Shown here piece after piece: positions 7,408 through 29,966 of a stretch of 64,000 nt of DNA. Each line of letters opens with the position of its first letter. Position 1 is the stretch's first letter. Where the stretch lies: assembly GCA_002352465.1 (NCBI GenBank), contig DEIN01000003.1, forward strand, positions 88,933 through 152,932, written 5' to 3'. The translations under genes were made by a program, and so were the position numbers. Below the pieces are notes generated by a model. It searched no databases. It had not been told where the DNA came from and worked only from the letters and a program-made list of their open reading frames with translations. Source of the stretch: Patescibacteria group bacterium UBA2773. Lineage in GTDB: Bacteria; Patescibacteriota; Minisyncoccia; Moranbacterales; DUUL01.

Positions 7408-7480
7408 TCCCGGGTAGCTCAGTGGTAGAGCAATTGACTGTTAATCAATCGGTCGTCGGTTCGAATCCGACCCCGGGAGC
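7408..7480 (+). tRNA. tRNA-Asn (anticodon GTT)
   Basis: Acceptor TCCCGGG/CCCGGGA, discriminator G. D-arm GCTC-AGTGGTAGAGC. Anticodon loop CTGTTAA. T-arm GTCGG-TTCGAAT-CCGAC. Confidence 0.85.
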
Positions 7481-9084
7481 AGTATCGGATTTTGAGCAAA
7501 AAGAACCTTAATTTTTGCCTTATCCAAGCCACTTTTAACAGGTTCGAAGCTATCATAAATAGCTCTTACCTCTGGAACCGCTTCTTTTACTTTTAAGAGC
7601 GGTTTTTGTGCTTTAACAAAGAGTTTTCTGTCTTTTAACAAGAGGTTCGAATCTAGTGCAACCAATATCTCTTTCTTAATTTGCAAATTCCCCGTTTCGA
7701 ATCTGAATCTTGCATTTTCAGCAAATCCTAACAACAGAGAAACTTCTTCTAACCAATCGTCAATCCCCTTGTCACAATCATTTAACTTCTTTTTTATCTC
7801 CTTCTTCTCTCTTTTAAGTTCAAATTTCTTATTTTTAAACTCTTTCTCGTCGATTTCTTCATTGGCTCGCATATCAATTAAATTATCGATTCTCTTAATA
7901 CACGATTGATATTGTTTTTGATGATTTAAAATTATTCTATTCCTATCCCGTGATTCATTTTTATTCTCATCTCTTATCCAATCAAAAGCCCACTCCTTAA
8001 AAGTTTCTGGGACTTCTATTCCCTTCAAAACCTCCGCTATTTGTTTTTCAAGCTCTTTTTTCTCAATGGAAAGTTGAGAACATTTTTTACCGTCTTCAGT
8101 TCTTTTTTGTTTAGTGCAGTGATAATAAGTATAATTGTGTATATTCCCGTTTTTTTGATGTTTAACCTTATCTTCAGCAGTTATTAAAGCTCCACACTCG
8201 CCACAACGAATTAAACCAGTAAAAGCAAACTCGTGAGTTCTTGGTCTTGGTTTCGCTTTTTTGCCTAAAAATAACTGGATTCTATCATATTCATCCTTAG
8301 TTATCATTGGCTCGTGTTTGCCGATATACCAATTCCCGCTGTTTTTTGGATACTCAAACTCACCACAATAAAATGGATTAGAAAATAAATCATAAATCGT
8401 GCTTCTAGCAATTGGCTTTCCTTTAACATTCCTAAACTTCCATTTATTAGTTGCTATTTCTAAAATTTTAGGTGGTGTATAAGCCCCTGAAATCATTAAA
8501 TCAAACATTTTTCTAACCAATTCAAACCTTTCAGGGTCTTTCACAATTATTTTCATCCCTTTATTTTTATCAGGAGTATTTAAATAACCCAAACGAGCAG
8601 GAGCAGGATACCAACCAAGCTCTGCTTTATTTCTCAAGCCCCTTTGAGTATCAACACTTAAATCTTTGATGAATTGATTAGCCATTCCAAGTTCAACCGC
8701 CATAACAATAACATTATCAGTCGGATAATAGCTTCTTCCAAAAGTTTGAATATGTTGAATTACTCCTTGTTGAATCATCCAACTAACCTCTCCTCCGTCA
8801 ATTGGGTTTCTGGCTAACCGATTCAATTTCCAACAAATAATTCCTTGAGCCTCTCCCTTTTTAATCCTAGCCGTCATTTCATTGAAAACTTCTCTCCCAG
8901 GAGCTTTGGCAGATTTTGATTCAGAAAAAATTTTAACTATTTCAAATTTTTCTTGTTTAGCTATTTTTTCTAATTCTTTGATTTGAGATTCAATTGAAGC
9001 CATTTGCCTGTCTTCACTCTCGGAAGATTTTCTAGCATAAAGAAAGTATTTGATTTTTTCATCTTTGTTATTATGTCTATTCAT
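7441..9084 (-). CDS. Large serine recombinase (integrase)
   Basis: 547 aa. N-terminal resolvase-type catalytic motif 'YARKSSESEDRQ…SIESQ', a recombinase domain, Cys-rich zinc ribbon (CGECGALI…HCTK) and a coiled coil. The last ~13 codons are the antisense of the tRNA-Asn 3' half. Confidence 0.85.
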   Translation of the reverse strand: MNRHNNKDEKIKYFLYARKSSESEDRQMASIESQIKELEKIAKQEKFEIVKIFSESKSAKAPGREVFNEMTARIKKGEAQGIICWKLNRLARNPIDGGEVSWMIQQGVIQHIQTFGRSYYPTDNVIVMAVELGMANQFIKDLSVDTQRGLRNKAELGWYPAPARLGYLNTPDKNKGMKIIVKDPERFELVRKMFDLMISGAYTPPKILEIATNKWKFRNVKGKPIARSTIYDLFSNPFYCGEFEYPKNSGNWYIGKHEPMITKDEYDRIQLFLGKKAKPRPRTHEFAFTGLIRCGECGALITAEDKVKHQKNGNIHNYTYYHCTKQKRTEDGKKCSQLSIEKKELEKQIAEVLKGIEVPETFKEWAFDWIRDENKNESRDRNRIILNHQKQYQSCIKRIDNLIDMRANEEIDEKEFKNKKFELKREKKEIKKKLNDCDKGIDDWLEEVSLLLGFAENARFRFETGNLQIKKEILVALDSNLLLKDRKLFVKAQKPLLKVKEAVPEVRAIYDSFEPVKSGLDKAKIKVLFAQNPILLPGSDSNRRPID

Positions 9085-9211: not shown

Positions 9212-9433
9212 TCAATTTTTACTCATTTTCCTCAAATCGTCAACTCTCTGCTCTTTTTTCCATTCTAAAAAACTATTATATTCTTCAATACTTTTGAAAG
9301 ACTTATAAGCCAATTTCATTAAATTAAGAAAACTAACCGCTCTTTCAAAAGCTTCTTTCTTGCTTATCTTTTCACCAAATTCCTTTAGATAAAGCATTCT
9401 GAACTCTTCAATTTTTTCTTCGGTTAGCTTCAT
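9212..9433 (-). CDS. Small hypothetical protein (73 aa)
   Basis: ORF track, next to the recombinase. No recognisable motif. Confidence 0.3.
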   Translation of the reverse strand: MKLTEEKIEEFRMLYLKEFGEKISKKEAFERAVSFLNLMKLAYKSFKSIEEYNSFLEWKKEQRVDDLRKMSKN

Positions 9434-9445: not shown

Positions 9446-9715
9446 CTAGTTTCTATCTTTGACTTCAAAAATCATTCTTTTTAAATCTCTCATCCGATTA
9501 TTAAACTCCCTCGGTTCGACCTTTAGTTTTCCTTTCTGAAAATCTTCAATAATTTTTTCTGTCTTTTCTTCCATAGGAACAATAAAATATGCAATCCCAG
9601 CCCGTCTATCCCATTCAATTTTCTTTATTGAATGAGAAAAATAACTTAGAACAGTAGCAAGAACTAATTCTCTAGTTAAAAAATCCCTACCTGTTTGAAA
9701 ATAATCATCCTTCAT
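9446..9715 (-). CDS. Small hypothetical protein (89 aa)
   Basis: ORF track, 12 bp upstream of the 73-aa ORF, so possibly a two-gene module. Confidence 0.3.
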   Translation of the reverse strand: MKDDYFQTGRDFLTRELVLATVLSYFSHSIKKIEWDRRAGIAYFIVPMEEKTEKIIEDFQKGKLKVEPREFNNRMRDLKRMIFEVKDRN

Positions 9716-9811
9716 AAATATTATTTTAATTGTTAATTTTAATCTTTCTTTAGGTTGATATTAGTCTATTTGTTTTCCGAAGCATTTTTGGAACTTTTTG
9801 AAAAATAAAAA

Positions 9812-9835
9812 CGCCTCTTTCGAGACGTTCTAACT
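9812..9835 (-). terminator. Rho-independent terminator downstream of the 531-aa gene
   Basis: Minus-strand hairpin aacgtctc-gaa-gaggcgtt followed by tttattttt. Confidence 0.45.
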
Positions 9836-9854
9836 TGATATTTTTTAATAATAT

Positions 9855-11450
9855 TTAGGAATATAACTCTTTCTTGATTTTTTCCGCTAATAATTTTCTT
9901 GTTTTAAAAACAGCTCTTTTTCCCATTCCAAACTTTTCACCAATCTCTTCATCTGAATATCCTTCATAGTTTAACTTTAAAATTTTAAAATCACGTTTAA
10001 TCTTCTTTTTCTGAAAATTAGTTTCGGCTTTTTTGATTATTTTTTTCTTAATTAAAAATAAATCTGATTTAGTTATTTTTTCATTCAAAACACCATCTTC
10101 TCTCCCCAAGGTATCTTTTAATTTCAGCCCATTATTCCCGGAAAAATTAGTCTCTTTATCTAAGCTTATTTCTTTTTCTTTCTCTTTAATTAGCTCTAAT
10201 GGATTTGATTTATGGTTAAGCCAATTTTCTAATTCACTTTTAAAACTATAAACTAACCTCTTAAAATAATCTGGTTTTTTAAGCATCCCTTGGTTAAAAA
10301 AACATCCGATAGCTTCTATTGGAGAGAGTCCAGCTGATAATATAGGTAAGCAAGTCTTGGTTATATCATTTTCGATATCTTCAAATTTTAAACCGCCTTT
10401 TTCAAAAAATTTATAATCAAGAGCTATTTTTAATTTTTTATCCTCATAATCAACTTTTTTCAAATGCTCCAAAAAACCTCCCTTAAAATTTTCAACCAAT
10501 CTAAGCATTATTTTTTTGTTTATAGATTGTTCAGCTTTAAGGGCTAGCTCATTTTCCTTATCTAATTCTAAAAAATAATTTAATTTTTTAAAATTATTAC
10601 CAAACAAAACTTTTTCCATAATAGTATCTGTTGCTGTCTCAAGCAAGAAAATTTGTGTATCATCTAAAATTACTCCACTTTTAAATTTTTCTGGTAATTG
10701 CTCTTTAATAAATTTATTAGCCACTCCGTTGAAATATCCTCTCAAAATACTTTTGATTTTAGCTTTAACTTGAAAATCACCATCTTGACCTTTAGTCAAA
10801 ACATACAAACCAACGATTCTCTTTAAAGCATCCTTTCCTATAAAATAGCTTAAATCAAGTTCATTTAAAATTTTTTGTGAATATTCGTGAATACTGTAAT
10901 TCCGTAAAGGAGTTGTTATTTCAAATTTCGAACAAACATCATCCAAGTTTCCTCCCATTTTTTCTACTTCTTCGCACTTTCTTAAAAGATAACCCCTCAA
11001 GTCATTAACCTCTTCCCTAAAATCCTCCCCTCTAGAAAATTTTCCCAAGTTGACTTCTAGACAACTTTTTTCATCAAATATGCTTATAAAATCTTCATTT
11101 TCTTCTGAAACAATAAACTTAGAAATTTTTCCATTTCCAGCACTTCTATTTTCTTCAAAATTTAACCCATAATAGTCTTTATGCTCTAATTCTTCTATAA
11201 AAAGATGCTTATCAACTTCTAGTTGATATAAATTTGGTTTAACATCAAAATCGATTCTCTCTTCCCAAATTCCGTTTTCTCTCAAAGAGGTTATTAACAT
11301 TCTAAATTGCTTTTCAGCTCCACCTTTTTGATGTTTTTTATCAACTTCATCCATCGCCTGAATCAATTTAACAGCATTTTCTTTCAAATTTAAAAATATT
11401 TCAATTCTTTTTTTCAAATCCGACTGTCTTTGAGCTAAATTATTCTTCAT
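9855..11450 (-). CDS. Hypothetical protein with C-terminal sigma-70 region-4/LuxR-like HTH
   Basis: 531 aa. C-terminus 'LKLNYEGYSDEEIGEKFGMGKRAVFKTRKLLAEKI' resembles an ECF-sigma region 4 HTH. The N-terminal ~480 aa are unassigned. Confidence 0.45.
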   Translation of the reverse strand: MKNNLAQRQSDLKKRIEIFLNLKENAVKLIQAMDEVDKKHQKGGAEKQFRMLITSLRENGIWEERIDFDVKPNLYQLEVDKHLFIEELEHKDYYGLNFEENRSAGNGKISKFIVSEENEDFISIFDEKSCLEVNLGKFSRGEDFREEVNDLRGYLLRKCEEVEKMGGNLDDVCSKFEITTPLRNYSIHEYSQKILNELDLSYFIGKDALKRIVGLYVLTKGQDGDFQVKAKIKSILRGYFNGVANKFIKEQLPEKFKSGVILDDTQIFLLETATDTIMEKVLFGNNFKKLNYFLELDKENELALKAEQSINKKIMLRLVENFKGGFLEHLKKVDYEDKKLKIALDYKFFEKGGLKFEDIENDITKTCLPILSAGLSPIEAIGCFFNQGMLKKPDYFKRLVYSFKSELENWLNHKSNPLELIKEKEKEISLDKETNFSGNNGLKLKDTLGREDGVLNEKITKSDLFLIKKKIIKKAETNFQKKKIKRDFKILKLNYEGYSDEEIGEKFGMGKRAVFKTRKLLAEKIKKELYS

Positions 11451-11646
11451 CTTTTAATCTTAATCTTAATTTATCCTAAAGTGCTTTAGTATAGCCTAAA
11501 AACGAATAAAAATAAAGACAACAAAAAAACAATTACCTGATAATTGTCTAGTCTCAAAATATTTTTAAATTTTATAAACTCTTTATCTTCTCTATTCTAT
11601 CACGATAATCGGGCAATGCTTTTTAACCAATTGTCAAAATTTTCTC

Positions 11647-13119
11647 TCAACTTTTCAACTTTCTTAGTATCTCCACCATCGCCAAAGTATCTAACTCACA
11701 ATATTTAAGTAAATCTTTTCTAATTTTAGCTTTTTCATCCTCAGAAACATCGTCGAACATTGTCTTTCCCCAAGCTTCGATTGCCATTGTTCCATTTTGC
11801 ACTTCTAACTCTTTATAGGAAAGCTCAGGAACTAAAACTGGCAAAACTTTTTTAATAGAGGCACTGCCCTTGAAATCAGGATGAAGATAATCTTTTTTGA
11901 AAACCTTCATTAAATCAAAGACTCTCGAATTAACATCTTCTAGAAAATCTTTAAATTCAGGATGTAATTTCATCAATTCCTTGTTTCTTCCCTTTTCAAA
12001 AGATTCATACCAAACGACGACACTTCCGACTGGTCCAATCTGGCTTTTCATTGATTTTACCAAATCTCGAGTAGCATTTTCTAGATTATCAGCTAAATAT
12101 TCAAAATGTTGAAGTTTTCCGTCTTTGCCTAAAATATGCAATGAATATTGAAAAACTAGTTGTTGATTAGTTTTATAACCGTCTAAAAATGGGATTGGTT
12201 TTCCAAAAGTCTCGTAATCTAAAAAATAAATTGGATAAACCAACTCAGACAAAGTTTCCCGAACCGTTTCTTGATTGATTTGAGGAATGCCTGTCTTTTG
12301 AAGGTCAATTTTAATTCTTTGGATTTTAGTAGCTTCAAAATCCTCTGGAACATCTTTAACATCAAAAATATTATCATTAACTAGAGTTTCAAGCTTTTTA
12401 CCCTTAAAAATATGAGCTGTTGAATATTCTGGGACTTGCGGATTGAAAAGATTAAAACAATCACAACGCTGTCCGTGACTTCGGTAAATGCAACCGCAAC
12501 CCTTTAAATCAACATCATCAATTTTGAATGAATCTAAGGCTTTTTGGATTTCAATTTCTGTTTCTTCTTTAATATCAGCTATTTTATCTGAAACCTCGTT
12601 CAAAACAAATAACTGTTTCAAATCCAAATCACCGTTTTTAATATAGTCCTTGCTTAAATGCACAATAAAATTTTTTCCAACTTCAATTCCTGATTTTTCT
12701 AAAACTATTTTCTGAAAAGCAATGTCCTTAATATGATTATGAAATAAATCGGTCTTAATACTAGAACCTGATTTTACTTCATATAAGTTCCACTTTTTGC
12801 TCTTTTTATCAAATTCTAAAACATCAATCTTAGCAAAAAGTCCCTCTTCTGTTTCAAAAGTGGCTTGAAATATTGTCTTCTGTTGTATGATTAGCTCTTT
12901 GGTTTTTTCAATTAGTTCTTTTCTGCTACCGATATTTGAAAATCCACCGCTAAAAGTCTGTTGAAAACATTCTTCAACTTCATAACCGTCCTTAATCAAT
13001 TTTTTCAAGAAAGCCGAAAACTCCCCCTCAACATAATCCTCGGGTCTTTTCTTTTTTAGCCAAAGACATTTCTGGCAAATCAGAAATTCTTTAAAATCGG
13101 TTTTTGATAAATAAAGCAT
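11647..13119 (-). CDS. DUF2779-like Cys-rich PD-(D/E)xK nuclease-fold protein
   Basis: 490 aa. N-terminus 'MLYLSKTDFKEFLICQKCLWL' recalls the DUF2779 signature. 'NLYEVKSGSS' is an E-x-K motif. Cys cluster CGCIYRSHGQRCDC. Starts 18 bp after the Res gene. Confidence 0.45.
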   Translation of the reverse strand: MLYLSKTDFKEFLICQKCLWLKKKRPEDYVEGEFSAFLKKLIKDGYEVEECFQQTFSGGFSNIGSRKELIEKTKELIIQQKTIFQATFETEEGLFAKIDVLEFDKKSKKWNLYEVKSGSSIKTDLFHNHIKDIAFQKIVLEKSGIEVGKNFIVHLSKDYIKNGDLDLKQLFVLNEVSDKIADIKEETEIEIQKALDSFKIDDVDLKGCGCIYRSHGQRCDCFNLFNPQVPEYSTAHIFKGKKLETLVNDNIFDVKDVPEDFEATKIQRIKIDLQKTGIPQINQETVRETLSELVYPIYFLDYETFGKPIPFLDGYKTNQQLVFQYSLHILGKDGKLQHFEYLADNLENATRDLVKSMKSQIGPVGSVVVWYESFEKGRNKELMKLHPEFKDFLEDVNSRVFDLMKVFKKDYLHPDFKGSASIKKVLPVLVPELSYKELEVQNGTMAIEAWGKTMFDDVSEDEKAKIRKDLLKYCELDTLAMVEILRKLKS

Positions 13120-13137
13120 TATTTAAAATCTAATATT

Positions 13138-15879
13138 TTAAGAAAATATTTCAGAAACTTTTTCTACTCTTCGAAAATCAACCCCCTCTAATTCTCTGAA
13201 ATGAGCCTTCCCACAATCAATCTTATTTTGTTCACTTTCTCTAATTTCTCCAGGAGATTTAGTTTCCGCCACAAAGTAAACCTTTTCGTCATTCTCCAAA
13301 ACAATTGCCCAATCAGGATTATAATTACCAATCGGCGTTTTAATTTTAAACCACCCAGGAAGTTTAAAATAAAATTTAACTCTATCTATTGATTCAAGTT
13401 CTTTAGCAAACTCTGACTCTACCGCAGAATCAATCAAAACGTGGTCATAAAGAGTTTTATCTTGATTTTGAACCTTAACTACATTCTCTAAATAGCTCTC
13501 CAGCTCATTGCCTTTAAATAGCTCCATAGCGTAATAATTATTCTTGCCTTGAAGTCTCTCATATTTAATTCCATCGACAATCAATTTTTGCAAAGCCGAC
13601 CGAATCGAATCAACTGCTAAATCCATAAACTGCTGAGGATTTTTGGCAATCTCCATATCCTTGCCCGATTTTTTAATAATCTCAACTATTGTTTGTCTAG
13701 TTAATTTAGTTTTAGCTTGAATGTATCCCAAGATGTTAGGAATTGCTTTAAAATCATTTTCATACTCAACTTTTTTCTCGCTAATATTAGCCAAACCCGT
13801 CACTATTCCTTTTTTTGTAATATCTAATTTTCCTTTCAAACTAATAATTTTAGGCTCTCTAATTTCAGCATTGGCTAAAAATTCGCTAGATTCCTTTATC
13901 AAGTCTTCATTGCTAAAATTTACCTGGTATTTAGTTTTGTATTTAATTTTGTTCCAAAGCTCTTTAAAATCTTCATTTAATTTGTAGGCTTTAGTTAATT
14001 TAATTTTAGTCCTGTCTCTTTTTCTTTTTACTCTTTCACTAAAATCAACCCCACATTCATCTTCAATTTCAATTTGCAATTTTTTAGCAAATTCTTCATA
14101 ACTTTCATTAGCAATAACTGTCAAAACATTGATATTCTCATCAAACACCCTTTGCCCTTCTTGATTGACAGAAAGTCTCATTCCCCGACCAATTTCTTGA
14201 CGTTTTTTAATTTCACTTTGAGACCGACTAAGCGTGCAAATTTGAAAAACATTAGGGTTATCCCAGCCCTCTCTAAGAGCTGAGTGAGAAAAAATAAATT
14301 GCAAGGGCTCCTTGGTTGATAAAAGTCTTTCTTTATCTTTCATTATTAAACTATAAGTATCATCATCAGCCTTGCTGTTGCCTTTAGTATCTCGCCAATT
14401 TCCTTTTTTGTCTTGAGAAAAATATCCATTATGGATTTTTTCTACTTCATAAGGAATTAAATCAGTGAAGACTGGATTTTGTTTCAATTCTTCAAAAATC
14501 TCTTCAAACCACACGGCAATTTTTCCTTTTTTAATTAAGTCATTTTCATAACTTCGATAATTAGCTACTTTATCAATAAAGAATAATGACAAAACTTTTA
14601 TTCCTTTGTCTTTGAATTTTCTTGCTTTTTCAAAATGATTTAGAATAGTCTGGCGAATTTGAAATTTCATTATTTCATCGTTTAGCCCACCAATCGATTG
14701 ACCAACATAAATCATTTTACCATTAGAAAATGCAATTGATTGACCAATGACATCCGCCGAATCAACAACATAGCCCTTATAAACGCCTCTTTCTCCTGAA
14801 AGTTTGAACAGATTACATTCGCTTGCTCCTTTTGAAGATTTTCTAACTGTAATTATTTTTCGTTTAATTCCGTTATTGTCGCTTACGTCAATTTTGAGCT
14901 TAATGGCAATACTATTTTTTTGAGATTGAACTGATTCTAATTCAATAAACGGTTCATTTAAATTATTTTCTTCCAAAACTGAATCCACCTCAATTTTTTT
15001 AACCAAATTCAAATCATAAGCTCTAACAGGGTCTAGTCTATAAATTAAGTTATATGGATTTTTATGAGTTGCCGAATATCTCAAAGTAAAAAGCGGATTT
15101 AAATTCTCAATAGCTTTTTTTCTAATCGGAGTTTCCATATTTTGAGGTTCATCTATAATCACAATTGGACTAATATTTTTAATGTATTCAATCGGCACAC
15201 CCCAATCACTTTTCTGATAAATAATATTACCTTTTCTTTTCTCCTCGCTAAATTTAGCAAAAGAATCAATATTGATTACTAAAATTTGAAGACTATTGGC
15301 GGTTGCAAAATTTTTCAACAAACCTCTTTTTTTTGGGTCGTAAACGTGAAAATCCATTTCAGGATTATCATAAATAGTATCAAAATGCTCTTTGGTGATT
15401 TGAAGATTTTTAATCACACCCTCCTTAATGGCAATTGAAGGCACCACGATAATAAACTTTTTAAAGCCATATTTATTATGAAGTTCGTGAATTGTTCTGA
15501 GATAAACATAGGTTTTTCCTGTTCCAGTTTCCATTTCAAGAGAAAAATTCATTCCTTCGGCTAATTTCTGATGGCTTGCTCCCGCACCTATCATTTCAGT
15601 CCCAATCGCACCGACACCAATTCCACCGCCACTTTTTATTCCAGATTTATTCAATTTATTTTCCTCCTGAATATTATGAAGATTTTTAATTATCTCCTCT
15701 TGGCTAATCACCAAATTATTTCCAACTACAAAACCACTTTCAAGCAATTGTTGCCCTGTTTGTTTTTTAATTTCAATTTCAAAATCGCCTTTATTCAAAG
15801 GTTGCCCCTCAAAAAGACTAACTGTCGAATTTATGGCATCTAATTGGTATTTTTGGTTTGAATCAAATTGTAATTTCAT
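13138..15879 (-). CDS. res: Type III restriction enzyme Res subunit (SF2 helicase plus C-terminal PD-(D/E)xK nuclease)
   Basis: 913 aa. Helicase motif I 'ETGTGKTYVY', motif II 'IIDEPQN', and C-terminal 'NPDW…FVAETK' nuclease motif. Confidence 0.7.
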   Translation of the reverse strand: MKLQFDSNQKYQLDAINSTVSLFEGQPLNKGDFEIEIKKQTGQQLLESGFVVGNNLVISQEEIIKNLHNIQEENKLNKSGIKSGGGIGVGAIGTEMIGAGASHQKLAEGMNFSLEMETGTGKTYVYLRTIHELHNKYGFKKFIIVVPSIAIKEGVIKNLQITKEHFDTIYDNPEMDFHVYDPKKRGLLKNFATANSLQILVINIDSFAKFSEEKRKGNIIYQKSDWGVPIEYIKNISPIVIIDEPQNMETPIRKKAIENLNPLFTLRYSATHKNPYNLIYRLDPVRAYDLNLVKKIEVDSVLEENNLNEPFIELESVQSQKNSIAIKLKIDVSDNNGIKRKIITVRKSSKGASECNLFKLSGERGVYKGYVVDSADVIGQSIAFSNGKMIYVGQSIGGLNDEIMKFQIRQTILNHFEKARKFKDKGIKVLSLFFIDKVANYRSYENDLIKKGKIAVWFEEIFEELKQNPVFTDLIPYEVEKIHNGYFSQDKKGNWRDTKGNSKADDDTYSLIMKDKERLLSTKEPLQFIFSHSALREGWDNPNVFQICTLSRSQSEIKKRQEIGRGMRLSVNQEGQRVFDENINVLTVIANESYEEFAKKLQIEIEDECGVDFSERVKRKRDRTKIKLTKAYKLNEDFKELWNKIKYKTKYQVNFSNEDLIKESSEFLANAEIREPKIISLKGKLDITKKGIVTGLANISEKKVEYENDFKAIPNILGYIQAKTKLTRQTIVEIIKKSGKDMEIAKNPQQFMDLAVDSIRSALQKLIVDGIKYERLQGKNNYYAMELFKGNELESYLENVVKVQNQDKTLYDHVLIDSAVESEFAKELESIDRVKFYFKLPGWFKIKTPIGNYNPDWAIVLENDEKVYFVAETKSPGEIRESEQNKIDCGKAHFRELEGVDFRRVEKVSEIFS

Positions 15880-17992
15880 AATTTATGATTTCTTTAACTA
15901 ATGTTATAAGATATTCAAATTCATCCTTTTTTTTCTTTTTATTTTCGTCCTCTAGATAGTCTCTAATTTTTTTTAGAAAATTCAAAGCTCCCTCCTTATC
16001 GTGGCTAACATTTCCGCAATAAACTTCCAAACTTCCAGCTTCAAGTATGAATATTGGACAATTTATTTTTTTTATCTCTACTCCTTTCTTAAGTTCACTT
16101 AAAACATCTTCGAGATTATTTAAATTAAATTTTTTGTATTCTTTCATAAAATCGATTTCATCTAAAATTTTCTTATTATCCAAACTATTGTTAATCCAAA
16201 ATTTCAAAAATTTTTCATCCTTTTCGATAATTTTATTATTTTTTTGTAAACCATAAATTATTTTCAATATCCTAAGCCCGACATCTTTCTGAGTTAATTT
16301 TCTTTTTATAGACTTACTCTTAAAATAAGGTTCCAATAATTCCAAACTATTATTTTTCGTTAATTTTGTAATATTATCTTTTATCGGATTTAATAAAGTG
16401 ACTCCTTTCAATAAGCTACCCTCCCAAATATTATCCAAATCAGCAATAACAAAAGAATTAATTTTGAATTTATCTAAAAATTCTATATACTTTAAAAAAT
16501 TATTTTTTCCGTTAACTGATACGACCTCTATGCTCTTGTCTCCTTTATTGAATTTATCCAGCAAATAGCCAAAAATTATTTCGTCTGTCATACCCTCAAC
16601 AAGAATAATGTTATCTGCGAAAAAAAGCTTAGCACTATTTGAATAAGTAATTATATCAATTAAATCCTTTTGTTCCCCCAAAGAATTATTCCAACCAGAA
16701 TTTCTATTTTCTGGAATTAATTTCGTGAAACCATTCGATTTATAAATTCTAGTTATATTTTGAATCGTTTCTGAGCTTACAAAAAATGGCGAGTGCGTCA
16801 CTACCACAAATTGTAAATTTCGAATATTCGATACTTCATCATATAAACGAATCAACTTTGATTGCCATCTTGGATGCAGATGTATTTCAGGTTCATCGAT
16901 GATTAAAACTGCGTCTTTCAAGTCGAATGCTTCAATGGAAAAAATAAAATTAAAAATTTCTTTCTCTCCAGAACTCAATTTATTAAACTCAACTTGCCTT
17001 CCATCAGTCTCTATTATAAATTTAAACTTGTTATCATCTGCATTAGTCACTTCAACTTTAAAATCATAATTACCAACCAAATGCAATAGTTCTTTAACTC
17101 TTTTGACTTGCCCTATATCAGAAAACTTTTTTTTAACTGGCTTTCCTTTCTCTGTCAATAATTGATTCTCAGTTTTTAAGTCGTTAGATAATTTCGAAAA
17201 ATAATAAGTAAAATAATCAACGTCAGAAGAGGTTTTGTTTGATGTTTTTTCTTTTGATTGCCTAATTTTATCTGTTTTATTTTGTCCTGGCAAAGAAATT
17301 TCGAAACTTTGACCTTCGTGAAATCTATTTGGTGAAAAAAATTTCCAATTATATTTTAATTCTGAAATTTGATTGGTATTTCGAAATTTTTCATTATGCT
17401 TTTCTATTAGATACTTTATTTTTTCAAAATAATTTAAATATCTAAAAAATAATTTTTTATTATCAGAAAAACTATTATAACAATCGTCCGCTGTCTTAAC
17501 GTTGAGTAAGTGCTGAGAAAAACTAAATACTTGCTTAACTTCATTTTTCAATAAGTTGACATCTACCCTGGAAAACAAATCATTGAATGTTGTATAAATT
17601 TCGTTGCTTCCATTTCCAGAAAGCTCCCCTTCTATTTCAGATATTTTATCAAGATTGTTTTTAATAATTTTAATATTTTGTAAATCATTTTCACTAAATT
17701 CTAATTCAATTTCTAACTCTTGATTTACGTCATCTTTAATATTATCGTGTCTCGACAAATCAAAAAAATTATTGAGTTCTTTTCTTAAAAATAAAGTTTT
17801 AAAAGGCTCTTTATGCTCATTCCAATGCCAAATAAAAAAAGTATTCAAAGAAATATTTAAAATATCCATTAAATTACTTTTTCCTCCTCCATTCGGACCA
17901 ATCAAAATATTAGTCCCTTTTTTATTAAAAGAAATTTTAATCTTTTCTCCAATGCTTTTTATGTTTTGTATACTAATTGAATTTATTATCAT
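15863..17992 (-). CDS. OLD-family ABC-ATPase fused to a Toprim nuclease domain (GajA/AriAB-like)
   Basis: 709 aa. Walker A 'GPNGGGKSN', ABC signature 'LSSGEKE', Walker B 'LIIDEPEIHLHP', Toprim 'ILVEGMTDEIIF' plus DxD 'IADLDN'. Overlaps Res by 17 nt and starts 2 nt after Mod. Confidence 0.7.
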   Translation of the reverse strand: MIINSISIQNIKSIGEKIKISFNKKGTNILIGPNGGGKSNLMDILNISLNTFFIWHWNEHKEPFKTLFLRKELNNFFDLSRHDNIKDDVNQELEIELEFSENDLQNIKIIKNNLDKISEIEGELSGNGSNEIYTTFNDLFSRVDVNLLKNEVKQVFSFSQHLLNVKTADDCYNSFSDNKKLFFRYLNYFEKIKYLIEKHNEKFRNTNQISELKYNWKFFSPNRFHEGQSFEISLPGQNKTDKIRQSKEKTSNKTSSDVDYFTYYFSKLSNDLKTENQLLTEKGKPVKKKFSDIGQVKRVKELLHLVGNYDFKVEVTNADDNKFKFIIETDGRQVEFNKLSSGEKEIFNFIFSIEAFDLKDAVLIIDEPEIHLHPRWQSKLIRLYDEVSNIRNLQFVVVTHSPFFVSSETIQNITRIYKSNGFTKLIPENRNSGWNNSLGEQKDLIDIITYSNSAKLFFADNIILVEGMTDEIIFGYLLDKFNKGDKSIEVVSVNGKNNFLKYIEFLDKFKINSFVIADLDNIWEGSLLKGVTLLNPIKDNITKLTKNNSLELLEPYFKSKSIKRKLTQKDVGLRILKIIYGLQKNNKIIEKDEKFLKFWINNSLDNKKILDEIDFMKEYKKFNLNNLEDVLSELKKGVEIKKINCPIFILEAGSLEVYCGNVSHDKEGALNFLKKIRDYLEDENKKKKKDEFEYLITLVKEIINYEITI

Positions 17993-17994
17993 CT

Positions 17995-19884
17995 TTATAT
18001 TACCTTAAAATCAATATCTTCCTGTTCGGCTTGAAGTAAAATATTGGCTTTCAGTTCGTCATTATTTTGAAAAGCTCTTTCTAGACAAATTATTTTTTCT
18101 GGTTTTAAATTTTGAAAAAATTCACCCATTTCTTTAGAAATTTTATCGCCCAAATAAATAATCAATTTGCCATCACCCAAATTATAATATTTTTCCTTGC
18201 CCGAAGTAGCTTCAGCGGAGACTGGTCCTTTAAAATCTTTTTCCTGAATCAGAATATCCAAATCTAAACCACTTTTTAAAATAAGTTCATACAAAATATT
18301 TTTCTGAGTGCTTCCTGTTTCAAGATTATCAATAAAATCATCCAACGCTGAAAATAAATTCTTTCCGTCTTTGAATTTTCCTTGCCAAATCTTGAAATTA
18401 GATTTATCTAATTTAAAAGTTTTGAATCCTAAATCGACTTTATTTTCAGTCTCTTCTTTTATTTTTTTGCTTGCTCTTCTAATTCGTTCCTTGGCAATTT
18501 CAGCAATATTTTTATAGCCCGCCTTAAATGCTTCACTTTTTTCATTACATTTTTCTGGCAATTGAACACAAATCCATTTCCTATTTCCATTATCTTCAGC
18601 ATTTTGTTCCATTACTGCTTGAGCAGTCGGTCCTGAGCCAGCAAAAAAATCTAAAATTATATCTTCTTTGTTAGTAGAAAGAAATATTATCTTTTTTATC
18701 AATCTAACAGGTTTTGGGGTATCAAATGTTGCCACATCTTCAAAAAGTTTCTTCAATTCTTGTTTTGCTTCTTGATTATGTCCGACCTCTTTGTGCTTCC
18801 AAATAGTAGTACTAACTATTCCATCACTATTTTCAGATAAGAAAGTCTTAATTCTTGGCATATTACCACCGCTTTTTCCAAACCAAATTCTATTGTCTCT
18901 AACTAAATCATTAAATTTATTTAAAGACATAGACCAACTTCTTCCTTTGGGAGGAAGAGCCTCTCTGCCATTTGGCGTTTTTATTGGATAAATATCTTTT
19001 GGTGTAACTCTTTTTACTGTTAAGTCGCTAGATGCCCAAGAACCTCTTGAATCATTATCTGGATTAGAATATCTTTTATTGTTCTCATCAGTTCTTGGCA
19101 ATAAGTTTGGTTTCCAATTTTCCTTGTTTTTACAATAAAGTAAAACATAATCGTGATTATCAGATAAATACTTAGCATCATTTTGAGGAGAAAATTTCTT
19201 CTCCCAAATTATTTGTGCTACAAAATTCTCCTCACCAAAAATTTCGTTCATAATCATTCTTAAATTATGAACTTCGTTATCATCAATCGAAACAAAAATC
19301 ACTCCATCTTGCTTCAATAAATTTCTAGCCAAAAATAACCTTGGATACATCATATTAAGCCAATCGCTATGAAAATGTCCGTTACTGTCTTTTCTGTTAG
19401 CTGAAAGTCCGTCTGCTCTTGTCAAATCACCATTTTCATCCAATTCTCCGCTATCTTCCAATTCTTCTTTTCTGGTTTTTCTAAAATTATCATTATAAAT
19501 AAAATCATTTCCCGTGTTATAAGGCGGGTCAATATAAATACATTTGATTTTTCCATAATAAGAACGCTGTAAAACTTTTAGAACTTCCAAATTATCACCT
19601 TCGATAAAAGCATTGCCAGTTTTATCAAAATCAACGGATTCTTCCTCATTGGATTTTAATGTTGCTGTTGTTCCTTTTTGAATTTCTTCAAAACAACTAC
19701 TTTTTCCAGCCCAAGAAAGCCCGTAATGTTCATTGGCTAATTGATAATCTTCTCCCAAGGCTAATTTTAATTTTTCTGGGTCAATCTTTCCATCCGAAAA
19801 AACACTGGGAAAATTAACCTTCAATGCCTCGGCTAATTCTTTTTGAGAGATATAAGACCCTCCTTTTATTTTATGATTTTTCAT
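17995..19884 (-). CDS. mod: Type III (beta-class) DNA N6-adenine/N4-cytosine methyltransferase Mod subunit
   Basis: 629 aa. Motif IV 'IYIDPPYN' precedes motif I 'FFAGSGPTAQA' (beta-class order), with a TRD-sized insert between them. Confidence 0.75.
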   Translation of the reverse strand: MKNHKIKGGSYISQKELAEALKVNFPSVFSDGKIDPEKLKLALGEDYQLANEHYGLSWAGKSSCFEEIQKGTTATLKSNEEESVDFDKTGNAFIEGDNLEVLKVLQRSYYGKIKCIYIDPPYNTGNDFIYNDNFRKTRKEELEDSGELDENGDLTRADGLSANRKDSNGHFHSDWLNMMYPRLFLARNLLKQDGVIFVSIDDNEVHNLRMIMNEIFGEENFVAQIIWEKKFSPQNDAKYLSDNHDYVLLYCKNKENWKPNLLPRTDENNKRYSNPDNDSRGSWASSDLTVKRVTPKDIYPIKTPNGREALPPKGRSWSMSLNKFNDLVRDNRIWFGKSGGNMPRIKTFLSENSDGIVSTTIWKHKEVGHNQEAKQELKKLFEDVATFDTPKPVRLIKKIIFLSTNKEDIILDFFAGSGPTAQAVMEQNAEDNGNRKWICVQLPEKCNEKSEAFKAGYKNIAEIAKERIRRASKKIKEETENKVDLGFKTFKLDKSNFKIWQGKFKDGKNLFSALDDFIDNLETGSTQKNILYELILKSGLDLDILIQEKDFKGPVSAEATSGKEKYYNLGDGKLIIYLGDKISKEMGEFFQNLKPEKIICLERAFQNNDELKANILLQAEQEDIDFKVI

Positions 19885-19980
19885 TAGGTTTTTATTTAAA
19901 TTTTATAAAACACTATTGATAACAATTGGGTAATATACATATTTAAATATAGCCCTAGGTATCAAATAAGTAAAGAAATA

Positions 19981-21588
19981 TTATATTTTATCATTTACAA
20001 TTTTAATTGCTGTTGGTGGCTTTAAATAAAATGGCTCGCCAGCAATCTTTACAATCCCAATTTTTTCTTTTATTTCGCCAAGAACCAAACAAGGAATGTT
20101 AGTGCAACCCGCTTCTTTGTAGAAATAATAAGTATAATAGTCATCACTCATAATAAATTTTTTTCCTTTTTGATATACAGTTAATTCTGAATAATTTTTA
20201 TTTTTAAAATTTTCGGTAAAATATTTTTTTAAACTTTCATCGACAACTGGCTTATAATCGGTAAAAGGCTTTATAAATTCGCTCTTTATTAAGGCTCTCC
20301 TGCAAGTCAGCTCTTTCTTGTAGCAAGCACTCAAAAGCCTAATCAATTCTTCATCTTTTCTCTCATTGCTTTCTCCAAAATCACTTTTTATCTTAGAAAT
20401 ATCAATTTTACTAGGAATTTTATTTTTGTTATTCAGTAATTTCTTTGCTTCATTGATAATTTCATTAGGTGTAAAATGACAGCTAACCCAATAATCATCT
20501 GCTCCTAATTTAAGAGCTTTTTCAATACAATCCTTCTCTCCCATATTGCTATAAACAGCTATCCGAATATTGTTAAAATTCTTATTTTGACGAACTTTCT
20601 CAATGAACTCAATGCCGTCCATTTCTGGCATTACTATTTCAGTTATTATTAAATCAGGATTATAACTTTTGATTTCTTCAATCACATTTTTACCTGGATG
20701 AGAAAACTGCTTAATTTGAAAACTATTTTCTAAAAATTTTTTCTTAAATATCTCTCTAAGCATTGGGTCATTTTCAAACTGCATTATTTTAAAATTGTTT
20801 TTCCCTGTTTTTCTAAATTTTTCTATTTGAAAATTATCCAATTTATTTGTTAATTCAGCTCTTTTTCCTGCTTTTATAGCTTTCTCGGGAGTGTCAAAAA
20901 AAACATTACTCTTTCTTGAATCAAATAAATCAGCTTTACTAATATCTAAAAAATCTTTTCTTAATTTACTTGGCATTTTTTCTAAAACTTTGTATTCTTT
21001 TGAGATTTTTTCAGAAAATTCTTTATTTTTAGCCGTTGGCAAGACTGCCCCGTTTTTATCCCTATCAATTTTTTTCTCTAGACTTGAGACAAGATTTTCT
21101 CCTTTTGACTCTATTTCTTTTTTAGTTGAGTTTTTTTTATTATTTTTTTTGTATTTATTTATCAAAAGAAGAATCCCCACAGTTAGCAAAACATAAGTCA
21201 TTGATTTTAAATGAGCTTGAATTATTAAATCTCTTTCTTTAACGCACCATCCCAAGCCACCTCTTTTAACAATTCCAATACGAACCAAGTCTTGCACACT
21301 ATTTATTGAATAATAACAATAAGTTTTTCCACTAAAGCTATAATAATTAGAAGGAATCTTGATATTAAAAAAAATCAAATAAACGGCAAGTATCAAAATC
21401 AATTCTTGCCAATGGTTCTTGATAAAATTTTTAAACCAAATTTGTTGATTAAAAAATTTTACTAAATTTTCAAAAAAACTTTTTGTTTTATTCATAGCGA
21501 TATCAAACCGCTTAACGCAATAATCAAAAACAAGTAAAGTCAAAATTAAACCACTAATTACAGTAATCGCCAATAATATTTTGCTCAT
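19981..21588 (-). CDS. Membrane-anchored protein with a central response-regulator receiver domain and an unassigned C-terminal domain
   Basis: 535 aa. Three N-terminal TM segments, a receiver-like block 'LIITEIVMPEMDGIEF…IAVYS…LGADDY', and a ~150-aa C-terminus of unknown fold. Confidence 0.45.
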   Translation of the reverse strand: MSKILLAITVISGLILTLLVFDYCVKRFDIAMNKTKSFFENLVKFFNQQIWFKNFIKNHWQELILILAVYLIFFNIKIPSNYYSFSGKTYCYYSINSVQDLVRIGIVKRGGLGWCVKERDLIIQAHLKSMTYVLLTVGILLLINKYKKNNKKNSTKKEIESKGENLVSSLEKKIDRDKNGAVLPTAKNKEFSEKISKEYKVLEKMPSKLRKDFLDISKADLFDSRKSNVFFDTPEKAIKAGKRAELTNKLDNFQIEKFRKTGKNNFKIMQFENDPMLREIFKKKFLENSFQIKQFSHPGKNVIEEIKSYNPDLIITEIVMPEMDGIEFIEKVRQNKNFNNIRIAVYSNMGEKDCIEKALKLGADDYWVSCHFTPNEIINEAKKLLNNKNKIPSKIDISKIKSDFGESNERKDEELIRLLSACYKKELTCRRALIKSEFIKPFTDYKPVVDESLKKYFTENFKNKNYSELTVYQKGKKFIMSDDYYTYYFYKEAGCTNIPCLVLGEIKEKIGIVKIAGEPFYLKPPTAIKIVNDKI

Positions 21589-21778
21589 TTTATTTTTTTA
21601 ATTTTAATTTTTACCCTTTTTTTATTTTTAAAATTTTTAGCGAGAGGTCAAGAAACTTTAATTGAATCAAGGGGGGGTGGGGGTGGTTCGGTTTTTTCTG
21701 GTTGTTTTTTTAAATTCTTAACCTCTTTTTTATTTTTCTTTCTCTACTTCCTGTAATTACAATTATCGGAAGTTAAAC

Positions 21779-22012
21779 TTACCTTTCAATGAATTTTTCA
21801 TACAACCAGCTAATCAAAAGAAAGGGCATAAAACCGATTATTACTAGAAACGGAATACCCAACATCATTCTTAAAAGCTCCCAACCGTTTTCCCAACCCC
21901 AACTATGAAATATGTCTTGCATACTAATGTCTCCAATAGTGACAAACATAAAGGAATAAACCATTCCAACTAAAATTCCAAAGAAAAAGACTATTGGTTT
22001 CTTGAGCTTCAT
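21779..22012 (-). CDS. Small membrane protein (77 aa)
   Basis: Two hydrophobic helices. Overlaps the integrase stop by 4 nt. Confidence 0.3.
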   Translation of the reverse strand: MKLKKPIVFFFGILVGMVYSFMFVTIGDISMQDIFHSWGWENGWELLRMMLGIPFLVIIGFMPFLLISWLYEKFIER

Positions 22013-22989
22013 ATTTGTTTGTTAGTTATTTTTATATCTTCAAAGGTCTTATAAAATCTCGGTAAGTCCTCTTTAAGTTTAAGATTATCGTCATACACGA
22101 TTAACATCTCAAGACTTTTATGTCTTGAATATTTCTTAACATTTAACAAATCACCTTTATAGCTTCTGATTAGCTGACTAACAAAAAAATGTCTCGTGCC
22201 GTGAGTTGATTTATCAATACCTAATTCCCTGAAAAAGTCTTTGACTATTTTTCTTATTCCTCGCGTTGTAAGCCGTCCTGAGCGATGATTATTGCTTTGA
22301 CTAGTAAACAATGCTCCATCGGCGATTTTACTTGCTTTAAGATAAGTTTTGAGAGCCTGAGTAGTTTTAGGATGAAGATTGATTGCCTCTTTGTCGTCTG
22401 CTCCTTTTCCTTGAATAAAAGCTAGACTATTAACTAAATCCACATCTTTAATATCCAACCTAACTACCTCACATTGTCTCAAGCCCTGAAATAACAAAAA
22501 ACTCAAGATTACTTTCAATCTTAAGTTTTTTGGATTATCTTCTAATTGTTGTAGTTCTTTTGATAGTTTAGCCACTTCTTCCACATTCAAACCGCTTTTC
22601 TTATGTTTTCGACTCTGAGAGAAGACTTTGACATTTTGAGTGATATTAACTGGAATAAGCCCTCGTCGATTCAATTCATTTAAAAAAATCTTTGCAGTGA
22701 TTAAATACTTGTTCTTAGAGGAAACAGCTAGGTTATTTCTTCCTTTTAGGTATCTTTTGAATTTTAAAAAAGTATTATGATTAAGTCCTTGGCTTTTGGT
22801 AAATTCTAGAAACAATCTAATTCTTGATTGATAATCTTTCTTTGTGGCATCAGAAATATCTAATAAATCAAAGACTTGTTTCGCCTTCCCTTTCTCTTTT
22901 AATAATATTACCAGTTCTCCGCTCATAAAATTTATTAGTTTTATTGCGGGAACACAAAACCCCGCATCAGCTAGGTCTTGCGACCCCAT
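22009..22989 (-). CDS. Tyrosine recombinase / phage-type integrase
   Basis: 326 aa. Conserved R ('LRQCEVVRLD'), HxxR ('HGTRHFF') and catalytic Y ('HKSLEMLIVY'). The annotated N-terminus (MGSQDLADAGF…) lies in a GC-rich stretch, so the true start may be the internal Met (MSGELV…). Confidence 0.8.
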   Translation of the reverse strand: MGSQDLADAGFCVPAIKLINFMSGELVILLKEKGKAKQVFDLLDISDATKKDYQSRIRLFLEFTKSQGLNHNTFLKFKRYLKGRNNLAVSSKNKYLITAKIFLNELNRRGLIPVNITQNVKVFSQSRKHKKSGLNVEEVAKLSKELQQLEDNPKNLRLKVILSFLLFQGLRQCEVVRLDIKDVDLVNSLAFIQGKGADDKEAINLHPKTTQALKTYLKASKIADGALFTSQSNNHRSGRLTTRGIRKIVKDFFRELGIDKSTHGTRHFFVSQLIRSYKGDLLNVKKYSRHKSLEMLIVYDDNLKLKEDLPRFYKTFEDIKITNKQI

Positions 22990-23130
22990 ATCCCTTTCGA
23001 GATATAGCTCAACGAAGAGTTGCTAAACACGGGGTTTAGTATCTTCGTTGAGTCTTTTTTGCCATACCTTTGAATAAAAATTCAAAGGGTTAGGCGATTA
23101 AATAAATTGTATACAAACTATGCCATATGT

Positions 23131-23667
23131 TTAAAGTAAACCCAAATAATCCAATCCAACATATCCTACTTCTACATCTGTATTTTTTCCACCTTTTAAT
23201 AACTCCCTAAATTCTGAAAGAGGCATCAAAACTACTTCGGCAAATTCAGTTTTATCTAAGTTTTGTTCCGCAACTTTTTCACAATCAGTTATTACGACAC
23301 AGTGCCGATTCATTGTAGAGTAAGCGCAATCATAGGCAGTGGTTATAAATTTTGCTTTTCCTTTATAACCAGTTTCTTCTAAAAGTTCTCTTTCAGCTGC
23401 TTGTTCGGGAGTTTCATCTTTATCAACATAGCCGCCAGGAAGTTCATCTAAAATTTCCTTAGGTCCAGGACGAAACTGTTTGACTAATATTACTTGCTGG
23501 TCTTTGGTGAGAGCAAGAATTCCAACAGCAGGGCCTTCCTTTTTGATATAAAAATCACTAACTTTTCCATCAGGCAATTTAAAGTCAACCTTCTCCATCT
23601 TCTTTCCATATTTACTGAAAACTTCTTCTCTTGAAATTTCCTCCCATTTTTGTATTTTATTTGACAT
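23131..23667 (-). CDS. NUDIX hydrolase (ADP-ribose / NDP-sugar pyrophosphatase-like)
   Basis: Nudix box 'GGYVDKDETPEQAAERELLEETGY'. Confidence 0.7.
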   Translation of the reverse strand: MSNKIQKWEEISREEVFSKYGKKMEKVDFKLPDGKVSDFYIKKEGPAVGILALTKDQQVILVKQFRPGPKEILDELPGGYVDKDETPEQAAERELLEETGYKGKAKFITTAYDCAYSTMNRHCVVITDCEKVAEQNLDKTEFAEVVLMPLSEFRELLKGGKNTDVEVGYVGLDYLGLL

Positions 23668-23720
23668 ACTATATTATCTTTAAAAATTATTTAATTTTAT
23701 TATATAATATCTTTAAATCC

Positions 23721-23763
23721 AGAAAAAGTAAATGCCCTAGATTCAGTTAAATCTAGGGCATTT
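23721..23763 (-). terminator. Rho-independent terminator downstream of the IMPase-family gene
   Basis: aaatgccctagat-tcagttaa-atctagggcattt hairpin, followed on the minus strand by a U-rich tract. Confidence 0.5.
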
Positions 23764-23787
23764 TATGTTCCACCTCCTTTTTTAATT

Positions 23788-27898: not shown

Positions 27899-28066
27899 TT
27901 TCCCTTCCTCCTTTGTATCTAATTTGGATTATGCAGAAAAATCCTATTTTAAAAAATCTATTAACTTGTCAAAGAACATTAAAGACTACCTCAATTTGAC
28001 ATAGAAGTCAATTAGATGTATTAAATATTTGGATTTTTTCCCTTTTAAGGATTGTGAACAAACTGC

Positions 28067-29013: not shown

Positions 29014-29028
29014 TAAGTCGTTTTTATT

Positions 29029-29960: not shown

Positions 29961-29966
29961 AATGAA

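Follow-up and report, generated by a model that had tools for sequence, protein, structure and literature searches.

A 64,000-nucleotide stretch of contig DEIN01000003.1 from Patescibacteria group bacterium UBA2773 (hereafter the window, in which all positions are counted) carries an intact tRNA-Asn(GTT) gene, identified by ARAGORN, into which a large serine recombinase (LSR) gene reads from the opposite strand. This gene, LSR1, is the longest open reading frame (ORF) on that strand, and the agreement of ARAGORN and ORF coordinates bears out the 40-bp overlap on which an original prediction, made from the sequence, had been built (Table 1). On the minus strand the gene ends CTC CCG GGG TCG GAT TCG AAC CGA CGA CCG ATT GAT TAA (L P G S D S N R R P I D stop). 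Read codon by codon, its last 12 codons and stop complement the tRNA from the discriminator through the acceptor 3' strand, T arm and variable region to the anticodon stem, with the TAA falling on the anticodon (TT of GTT plus A37); the ...GSDSNRRPID tail had thus been read correctly as antisense tRNA. As integrated, LSR1 takes residues 1-536 from the element and residues 537-547 (PGSDSNRRPID) from the antisense tRNA, whilst the tRNA sequence itself is unaltered by the insertion through position 7480. There is no in-frame stop in LSR1 upstream of the TAA (before 7443), and the extension into the tRNA is therefore physically real rather than an artefact of annotation.

Table 1. Positions of the tRNA, recombinase, junction and cargo features in the window. 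A slash marks the end of the shared core.
Feature	Position	Strand	Details
tRNA-Asn(GTT)	7408-7480	+	intact
T arm of tRNA-Asn	7455-7471	+	host half-site (B arm)
Acceptor 3' strand	7472-7478	+	host half-site (B arm)
Discriminator	G7479	+	host half-site (B arm)
LSR1	7441-9084	-	547 aa
LSR1/tRNA-Asn overlap	7441-7480		40 bp
J1 (attL core)	7476-7480		...GACCCCGGGAGC/AGTATCGG; tRNA-Asn meets LSR1 3' end
J2 core	28701-28705		...CACTACGCGGAGC/CCTAAAGG; E1 far end meets 3' remnant of second LSR
J3 core	34622-34626		...ACCCAACGGAGC/AAACGCTT; E2 far end meets original tRNA trailer hairpin
Element E1	7481-28705		21,225 bp; intact LSR1
Element E2	28706-34626		5,921 bp, decayed; LSR2 3' remnant
Putative P' arm of attP	~7481-7510		within last ~10 codons of LSR1 (...FAQNPIL); from junction comparison
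E1 P arm and orphaned native LSR1 tail	28612-28705	-	L-RVVDDIRTYFRERQGYFYIPDLRTKNLEC-stop; native-tail profile
E2 P arm	34587-34626	-	L-RWVEGVRTCLV-stop; native-tail profile, second-best match
LSR2 3' remnant	28717-29046	-	second LSR of same family; family profile positions 397-495, E 8e-11
Original tRNA-Asn trailer (B' arm)	34627-34685	+	hairpin then U-rich run, 27 kb away from tRNA
73-aa ORF	9212-9433	-	directly upstream of LSR1
E1 cargo, whole span	9446-28531	-
E1 cargo near LSR1	9446 onward	-	DUF5659 protein; helix-turn-helix protein; DUF2779/Cas4-like nuclease
Type III restriction-modification, Res	13138-15879	-
OLD/GajA-like ATPase-TOPRIM gene	15863-17992	-	17-bp overlap with Res
Type III restriction-modification, Mod	17995-19884	-
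Response-regulator receiver (REC) and SduA/DUF4263 (Shedu-like) nuclease domain protein	19981-21588	-
Tyrosine recombinase	22009-22989	-	Phage_integrase family (Pfam)
GC-richer operon	23131-27898		GC 0.38-0.39 against ~0.30 elsewhere; NUDIX, IMPase, Fe-ADH, phosphomannomutase, nucleotidyltransferase
154-aa ORF just inside E1 far end	28067-28531	-	weak small-terminase similarity: PHROG 606, E 3e-4; Pfam GP3_package, E 0.01
E2 cargo	31550-34435		fused HsdR-N / N6-methylase / two-target-recognition-domain restriction-modification protein; plus ORFs without assigned function

LSR1 has every feature of sequence and structure by which a serine integrase was sought, namely the catalytic motif, the domain order, the coiled coil, a short core and a 5-bp offset between its sites. 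Pfam places the Resolvase (PF00239, E 2.5e-17), Recombinase (PF07508) and Zn_ribbon_recom (PF13408) domains in the protein, and Y16, R18, K19, S20 and Q27 of the catalytic Arg/Ser motif are invariant in 39 homologues. An AlphaFold2 model with a mean predicted local distance difference test score (pLDDT) of 82.9 comprises a catalytic domain, an alphaE helix, a recombinase domain and zinc-ribbon strands; a coiled-coil hairpin at residues 360-464 (helices 360-407 and 413-464) is inserted between the strands of the zinc-ribbon domain, two further helices follow (494-511 and 519-531), and the tRNA-encoded tail at 540-547 is disordered (pLDDT <50). The top ranks of a Foldseek search are held by the full-length SPbeta (E 2e-19), Bxb1, PhiC31 and LI integrases, with E-values from 2e-19 to 3e-12 at 12-18% identity. 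For an enzyme of this kind, integration by attP x attB recombination, and excision with the help of a directionality factor, would be expected; the one lead to such a factor is the conserved 73-aa ORF beside LSR1.

The fate of the C terminus becomes clearer when relatives are compared. LSR1 has more than 4,800 of these in databases, and tails were classified in the best 120, which are 54-75% identical to it. All are collinear up to ...Y(S/A)Q(S/N)PxLL, after which three classes part: 53 go on with (R/P)Gx-DSN-xxP..., the antisense of the T loop (GAT TCG AAC); 39 stop right at the junction, as forms of 529-531 aa; and 22 run into another conserved tail of 12-35 residues, ...xxxDx(V/I/F)RT(C/Y/F/W).... 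The forms that stop at the junction represent the same fusion with the stop lying in the antisense acceptor or T stem (e.g. LLRG-stop-DSNLQP), and where a tryptophan precedes the junction (NWL, KWGG), its codon TGG comes from a CCA that the genome encodes, read in antisense. An artefact of ORF extension, in which the recombinase would end before position 7480 and the tRNA-encoded tail would never be made, had been raised by the original prediction itself and is very unlikely: the predicted disorder of the tail and the 39 homologues that manage without one would suit it, but no earlier stop exists, and a dispensable tail belongs to the integration model rather than arguing against the junction. 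Integrated copies in the family retain full-length ORFs whatever their tail, arbitrary or absent, and the tail is on that account dispensable for the work of the integrated enzyme. In a homologue with the third, native kind of tail (P0050), this segment is predicted to be helical, with pLDDT of 86-77 over the first helix dropping to ~56. Conservation of the native tail extends beyond the ~25-bp arm of the attachment site and includes synonymous changes in its YF(Y/F)IPxL motif, which suggests that it has some role in the free form.

Junctions and tandem elements

The third tail class was read as the uninterrupted (attP) form of the gene, and an orphaned tail was therefore sought at the far end of the element, on the LSR strand. 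A hidden Markov model (HMM) built from 24 native, non-tRNA tails, with which all six frames of the window were scanned, gave only two matches above noise, 28615-28713 (-) at E 0.004 and 34590-34634 (-) at E 0.03, both on the LSR strand and each with GGAGC directly after it. Exact string searching places this pentamer, whose first three letters close the acceptor stem and whose other two are the discriminator and a single base beyond it, at three junctions, J1, J2 and J3. Joining LSR1 across the core to 28704-28612 yields an in-frame protein of 565 aa that ends LL-RVVDDIRTYFRERQGYFYIPDLRTKNLEC, with a native tail of 29 residues and the core at codon 536 of the 565-codon native ORF. The tail so restored resembles the far-end tails of two other loci, L051 (RVVDEVRTYYQNNPEYFFIPRL) and L042, and the native tails of P0028 and L033.

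To the right of J2 the family HMM identified the 3' remnant of a second recombinase, LSR2, which amounts to 110 codons with a premature stop; its called ORF (28714-29013, 99 aa) had earlier given no significant BLASTP match to LSR1 and no Pfam match. The last LSR2 codons abut the J2 core just as those of LSR1 abut J1. To the right of J3 stands a hairpin (fold -23.6 kcal/mol, z -4.3) that a simple terminator scan left unflagged, although folding supports it, and that reads as the start of the displaced trailer of tRNA-Asn. On the strength of the LSR2 remnant and this hairpin, the insertion is best read as two tandem elements, E1 followed by E2, with the original tRNA trailer beyond them; the outer boundary had been guessed, rightly for the insertion as a whole, at ~34.5 kb, and the trailer resumes at 34627. 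Inserted alone at tRNA-Asn, E2 would give the junction GGGAGC/CCTAAAGG..., and E1 alone would give ...CTACGCGGAGC/AAACGC.

A displaced tRNA-Asn 3' fragment, which the original prediction had proposed to look for by computer, is absent: a 28-mer and a 15-mer, each allowed up to three mismatches, match the tRNA alone. As expected of a serine integrase, only about 5 bp (GGAGC) are common to tRNA and element, and the notion of an element using a tRNA 3' half has to be given up. The missing fragment also bears on whether the tyrosine recombinase within E1 integrated the island, LSR1 being a passenger that happens to abut the tRNA. The gene is of the Phage_integrase family, and tyrosine integrases are the classical makers of tRNA islands (PMC4383910), but it lies 14.5 kb from the tRNA, a direct-repeat search around it and the GC-richer operon gave chance-level repeats only, with none flanking the recombinase, and the boundaries of the island are set by LSR-specific arms. 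Such an origin is scarcely credible.

Related genomes show the site in other states. The pairing of the arginyl-tRNA synthetase (ArgRS) gene with tRNA-Asn is conserved whilst the flank beyond the tRNA varies, and the 3' half of the tRNA has the same sequence in three relatives (L088, L090 and L092). Assemblies with an identical ArgRS protein have E1 too. In L088 (ArgRS 82% identical) a different LSR of the family, P0005-like and ~64% identical to LSR1, is fused at the same GGGAGC/ position; in L090 and L092 (73% and 70%) there is no recombinase at tRNA-Asn, and GGGAGC/AAA and a hairpin (-21.2 kcal/mol in L090) follow, which is the empty-site architecture reconstructed from J1 and J3. The comparison with relatives that had been recommended thus produced two empty sites and one with another occupant, and, instead of the same overlap leading into core genes, a variable flank. 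Shared cores, far-end tail homology and these sites together uphold the original claim of an integration junction. Very probably, the window holds two tandem islands that LSRs of one family have inserted at the very tip of the tRNA-Asn 3' end, and in this family attP straddles the end of the recombinase gene.

Recombinase family and attachment sites

Family members occur mainly in Patescibacteria, and also in metagenome-assembled genomes (MAGs) of Elusimicrobiota, Omnitrophota, Planctomycetota and Proteobacteria; where sources are named among the best 120 relatives, which is in few cases, nearly all are Patescibacteria metagenomes. At 48 of 81 loci encoding LSR relatives (80 genomic and one viral) the end of the recombinase ORF takes in the 3' end of a convergent tRNA or transfer-messenger RNA (tmRNA) gene, and the overlap at LSR1 is, given this recurrence, far beyond chance. 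The targets are tRNA-Asn (17 loci), His (12), Gln (8), Lys (2), Ala (2) and, at a single locus each, Trp, Ile, Met, Ser, Leu, Gly and one tmRNA, which makes 11 amino-acid specificities plus tmRNA. Three more loci (L011:11609-11883, L041:11602-11807 and L057:11648-11996) target tRNAs with group I introns (Rfam RF00028, 60-63 bits) that ARAGORN missed; DSNxRPxxYTxP...GGLYH tails (...YTxPxxxxxGGLYH), considered as the mark of a new target RNA, proved to be LSR ORFs reading into an antisense group I intron. The tmRNA case, from a Margulisiibacteriota MAG (L067:11558-11937), has a family LSR fused to the 3' end of the tmRNA gene and fits a recognition of the T arm plus acceptor end.

The spread of targets also decides how much weight can be given to a stable, selected overlap, for instance one in which tRNA and recombinase regulate each other by antisense, the enzyme being a resolvase or invertase and the junction no scar of integration. 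Conservation of the overlap across many genomes would accord with this, as would the want of a plus-strand terminator between the tRNA and the LSR gene. The same tRNA nonetheless stands without a recombinase in L090 and L092 and with a different one in L088, the partner varies over all the specificities listed above, the missing tail is found in frame at far-end arms, and the protein has a full integrase architecture and is no small resolvase; the explanation is to be regarded as highly improbable.

Candidate far ends, carrying P arms, lie upstream of the tRNA-fused LSR in ~25 loci (35 of 36 HMM matches being on the LSR strand) and imply elements 5-11 kb long. The cores shared by attL and attR in these other loci measure 5-10 bp and always cover the tRNA tip, examples being TTGCTCCGC in L019, TTGTTGCGGG at the tRNA-Met of a gammaproteobacterial MAG (L034), TTGCTGC at a tRNA-Gln (L020), TGCTCCG in L036 and TGGCTCC in L044. 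On the host side of other far ends there is often a hairpin, as expected of a tRNA trailer. Tandem arrays recur, with two far ends each in L019 and L044 and two LSRs each in L062 and L069. In a complete Moraniibacteriota genome (CP064994.1, L068:19760-19918) a tRNA-Asn is fused to the last ~35 codons of an LSR only (...EPLGFGSDKTKLWAEYAQSPMMLRRQDSNLRPGD-stop) and an intact LSR with a native tail lies 8 kb away, a layout that indicates a decayed tandem array. Amongst viruses, one IMG/VR contig encodes a relative, and no GenBank phage protein exceeds about 25% identity to LSR1. A LOOT RNA (RF03000, 72 bits) was also seen inside the LSR element of a Saccharibacteria MAG (L001:7574-7688).

The attachment sites can be compared on a common scale, numbered on the LSR strand with index (idx) 0 at the complement of the discriminator. 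The antisense of the T loop in any tRNA then occupies idx 13-19. The consensus of the P arms, tGCTCCGnnnnnTgGAnGAnGTT(A/C)GAACC, carries GGTTC(T/G)AA, which is read as ...(V/I/F)-R-T in the native tail, and whereas TTNRARY begins at idx 14 in tRNAs, 27 of 36 P arms have it at precisely idx 19, 5 bp further out. MAFFT independently pairs the P-arm GGTTC with the T loop, leaving the core 5 nt more distant. The '(V/I)RT' of native tails and the 'DSN' of tRNA-fused tails are one DNA motif in two frames. For the LI integrase, attP half-sites have the zinc-ribbon motif at positions 16-24 and attB half-sites have it at 11-19 (Rutherford et al. 2013, PMC3783163); the offset between P and B arms matches this spacing rule, which here holds for the P and B arms only. 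By analogy, the recombinase domain would read the acceptor and T-stem part of the site and the zinc ribbon the T loop.

An inverted GGAT/ATCC (or GGAC/GTCC) pair, with one half at idx 11-14 and the other at idx -11 to -8, each 11-14 nt from the centre, sets the point of symmetry at idx 1.5. This centre is inside every shared core, the cores of other loci overlap the same positions, and the crossover dinucleotide is predicted to be G7477-A7478. As a mirrored P' motif, AAAGAACC (7499-7506) was rejected, being 5-6 bp out of register and not conserved in homologues. Within the LSR1 gene there is a perfect T-loop-like GGTTCGAAGC at 7543-7552 (+), which encodes a highly conserved (L/F)EP motif; its distance from the core, ~65 nt, exceeds what a canonical half-site would span.

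Proposed mechanism, alternatives and known systems

In the mechanism proposed here, attP would be laid out across the end of the recombinase gene, with the last ~10 LSR codons as P' arm, a core that repeats the final acceptor-stem bases and the discriminator of the targeted tRNA (GGAGC in this case), and the codons of the native C-terminal tail as P arm. The zinc-ribbon domain would recognise the T-loop sequence with the spacing of attB where it lies in the tRNA and of attP where it lies in the element, such that the GGTTCNAA motif, by its 5-bp position, would set the identity of a site as attP or attB. Recombination would leave the tRNA intact and fuse the LSR ORF to antisense tRNA, adding 11 arbitrary residues and a stop in the anticodon loop; it would likewise strand the native-tail codons at the far end (28612-28705) and shift the terminator hairpin to 34627. 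In this scheme we infer the assignment of domains to motifs, the exact crossover dinucleotide, the order in which the elements came in, their mobility today, and any influence on regulation from the tail swap or from tRNA read-through antisense to the recombinase gene.

In a bolder version the recombinases would form a clade of serine integrases so far undescribed and devoted to tRNA and tmRNA genes, its zinc ribbon reading the universal T loop, and integration would be coupled to a protein switch: a helical tail when free, a disordered stub and antisense read-through when integrated. A promoter-like site (TTGACT-16-TAAAAT) precedes tRNA-Asn and no terminator-like site occurs on the plus strand between the tRNA and 9900, so any read-through of the tRNA would be antisense to LSR1. 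We put the bolder version forward tentatively, as possible though doubtful; if true, the switch could gate expression, stability or directionality, with or without a separate directionality factor.

Several points weigh against insertion by the route set out above. Firstly, the E-values of the native-tail HMM in the window are modest taken alone. Secondly, neither an excised circle nor a reconstituted attB or attP was recovered: exact junction 28- to 33-mers are absent from metagenome and viral collections, the doubly empty attB has no exact match in metagenome contigs, the circle junction of the E1 attP has none in metagenome or viral contigs, and short native-tail contigs have no terminal overlap, i.e. 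give no evidence of circular forms. Thirdly, native-tail LSRs in L033, L060, L075 and L080 are on long chromosomal contigs with no tRNA within 10 kb; those in L062 and L068 are explained by tandem arrays, which is not shown for these four. Fourthly, no mirrored T-loop motif occurs in P' or B' arms, and the B' arm is not conserved between J3, L090 and L092, making the att sites strongly asymmetric; specificity seems to rest on the tRNA arm, and the asymmetry could also explain the tolerance of hybrid sites in arrays. Fifthly, E1 (or, alternatively, E2) must have entered at such a hybrid site, composed of the tRNA arm and the LSR2 3' end or of a P arm and the trailer, and attL and attR are no targets for canonical serine integrases (PMC3783163). 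Lastly, a source assembled from metagenomes cannot prove activity.

The hybrid-site difficulty would favour a one-step origin, in which E1 and E2 were already joined, either as a co-integrate of attP with an attP-like site or because the whole 27 kb was one element that contained a relic site. They would have come in together through one attP x attB event that used the P arm at 34.6 kb and the LSR1 P' arm, with J2 as an internal scar, and the identity of all three GGAGC cores makes any pairing chemically possible. Against this, only 110 codons of LSR2 are left and they contain a premature stop, a sign that E2 may be the older element; several loci (L062, L069, L019, L044) also have arrays in which two different LSRs share one tRNA; and the B' arm varies so much that a hybrid site may be tolerated. 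A one-step entry is unlikely, if deserving of serious consideration, and successive insertion of tandem elements is the reading pursued here.

The serine integrases of phages and integrative and conjugative elements (Listeria A118/LI, SPbeta, Bxb1, PhiC31) have the same domain order, including a zinc ribbon with inserted coiled coil, and the same short att sites with a tiny common core and a motif 5 bp outward in attP; LSR1 differs from them in two extra C-terminal helices and a swappable tail, and its family differs from all characterised serine integrases in targeting tRNA and tmRNA tips and in laying attP across its own stop region. Islander-type tyrosine islands likewise have the integrase gene beside the tRNA 3' end, a functional tRNA, tandem arrays and defence cargo. 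Here, by contrast, the tRNA-adjacent gene encodes a serine recombinase, no tRNA fragment is restored or displaced, the core is 5-10 bp rather than tens of bp, and crossover is at the acceptor tip and discriminator. Mycobacteriophages BPs and Brujita practise integration-dependent immunity, in which a tyrosine integrase acts on an attP in the 3' end of the repressor gene and integration swaps the repressor C terminus, altering its activity or stability; in the present family the exchanged C terminus is the recombinase's own.

Among archaeal viruses and plasmids there are the 'suicidal' tyrosine integrases of the SSV type, with attP inside the integrase ORF, a tRNA target and a gene product changed by integration, which are exclusively archaeal according to a review (PMC8371274). 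Those enzymes are split into inactive halves, whereas here, in bacterial hosts, only the last ~29 residues are exchanged and no catalytic or DNA-binding domain is lost. RAP44-like phages of Riemerella are bacterial and combine an attP inside the integrase gene, a tRNA 3' end as target and an altered integrase ORF, but their enzyme is a XerD-like tyrosine recombinase, with attP at codons 9-14 (the 5' end) and a 19-bp core (PMC12169736).

Reviews state that serine integrases do not use tRNA genes (PMC4383910, PMC9262239), and the word 'tRNA' does not occur in a large LSR discovery survey. No description of tRNA-targeting serine integrases, or of LSRs in the Candidate Phyla Radiation (CPR)/Patescibacteria, was found in the literature searched, though island databases may already list cases without comment. 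Together with 80 related loci, LSR1 represents a large natural family that breaks this rule by a transparent mechanism, the attP arm being a copy of the T arm with a 5-bp insertion. The att sites lie open in the sequence, P' as the 3' end of the gene and P as the orphaned tail, and this gives many predicted attP/attB pairs (over the 11 tRNA specificities and tmRNA) on which to study how the zinc-ribbon and recombinase domains choose targets, and possibly integration tools for Patescibacteria, for other uncultivated lineages or for conserved tRNA sequences. The same reading explains a recurrent oddity of annotation, recombinase ORFs ending ...DSNxRP..., and shows small defence islands piling up in tandem at single-copy tRNA genes in reduced genomes.

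Cargo and surroundings

The genes to the right of LSR1, including the defence genes, the second integrase and the GC-shifted operon, had been taken for cargo, and they do fall inside the elements as now bounded. The E1 cargo was annotated by Pfam, PADLOC, PHROGs and composition. Neither Pfam nor PHROGs gives a match for the 73-aa ORF next to LSR1; tblastn finds homologues in 23 of the 81 family loci, and in 21 of these they precede the LSR on its own strand, making the ORF a candidate recombination directionality factor or regulator. Further in, the OLD/GajA-like gene sits between Res and Mod, an arrangement that suggests a three-gene defence module, and the tyrosine recombinase, with the GC-richer operon of sugar-phosphate and nucleotidyl-transferase genes that follows it, could be nested in E1 or have been acquired earlier. 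Neither capsid nor conjugation genes are found among the island genes annotated by Pfam, PHROGs and PADLOC, and both elements look like small defence and metabolic islands rather than phages. The 154-aa ORF with its weak terminase similarity could be a hint of phage-assisted packaging of the island.

On the far side of the insertion, synteny with relatives is lost to the right of tRNA-Asn. An AcrB/HlyD/TetR efflux cluster lies directly beyond the island at 34820-39629 (-), and slightly further out, at 40774-41304 (-), stands a gene for a PEP-CTERM protein, unusual for a small Patescibacteria-like genome.

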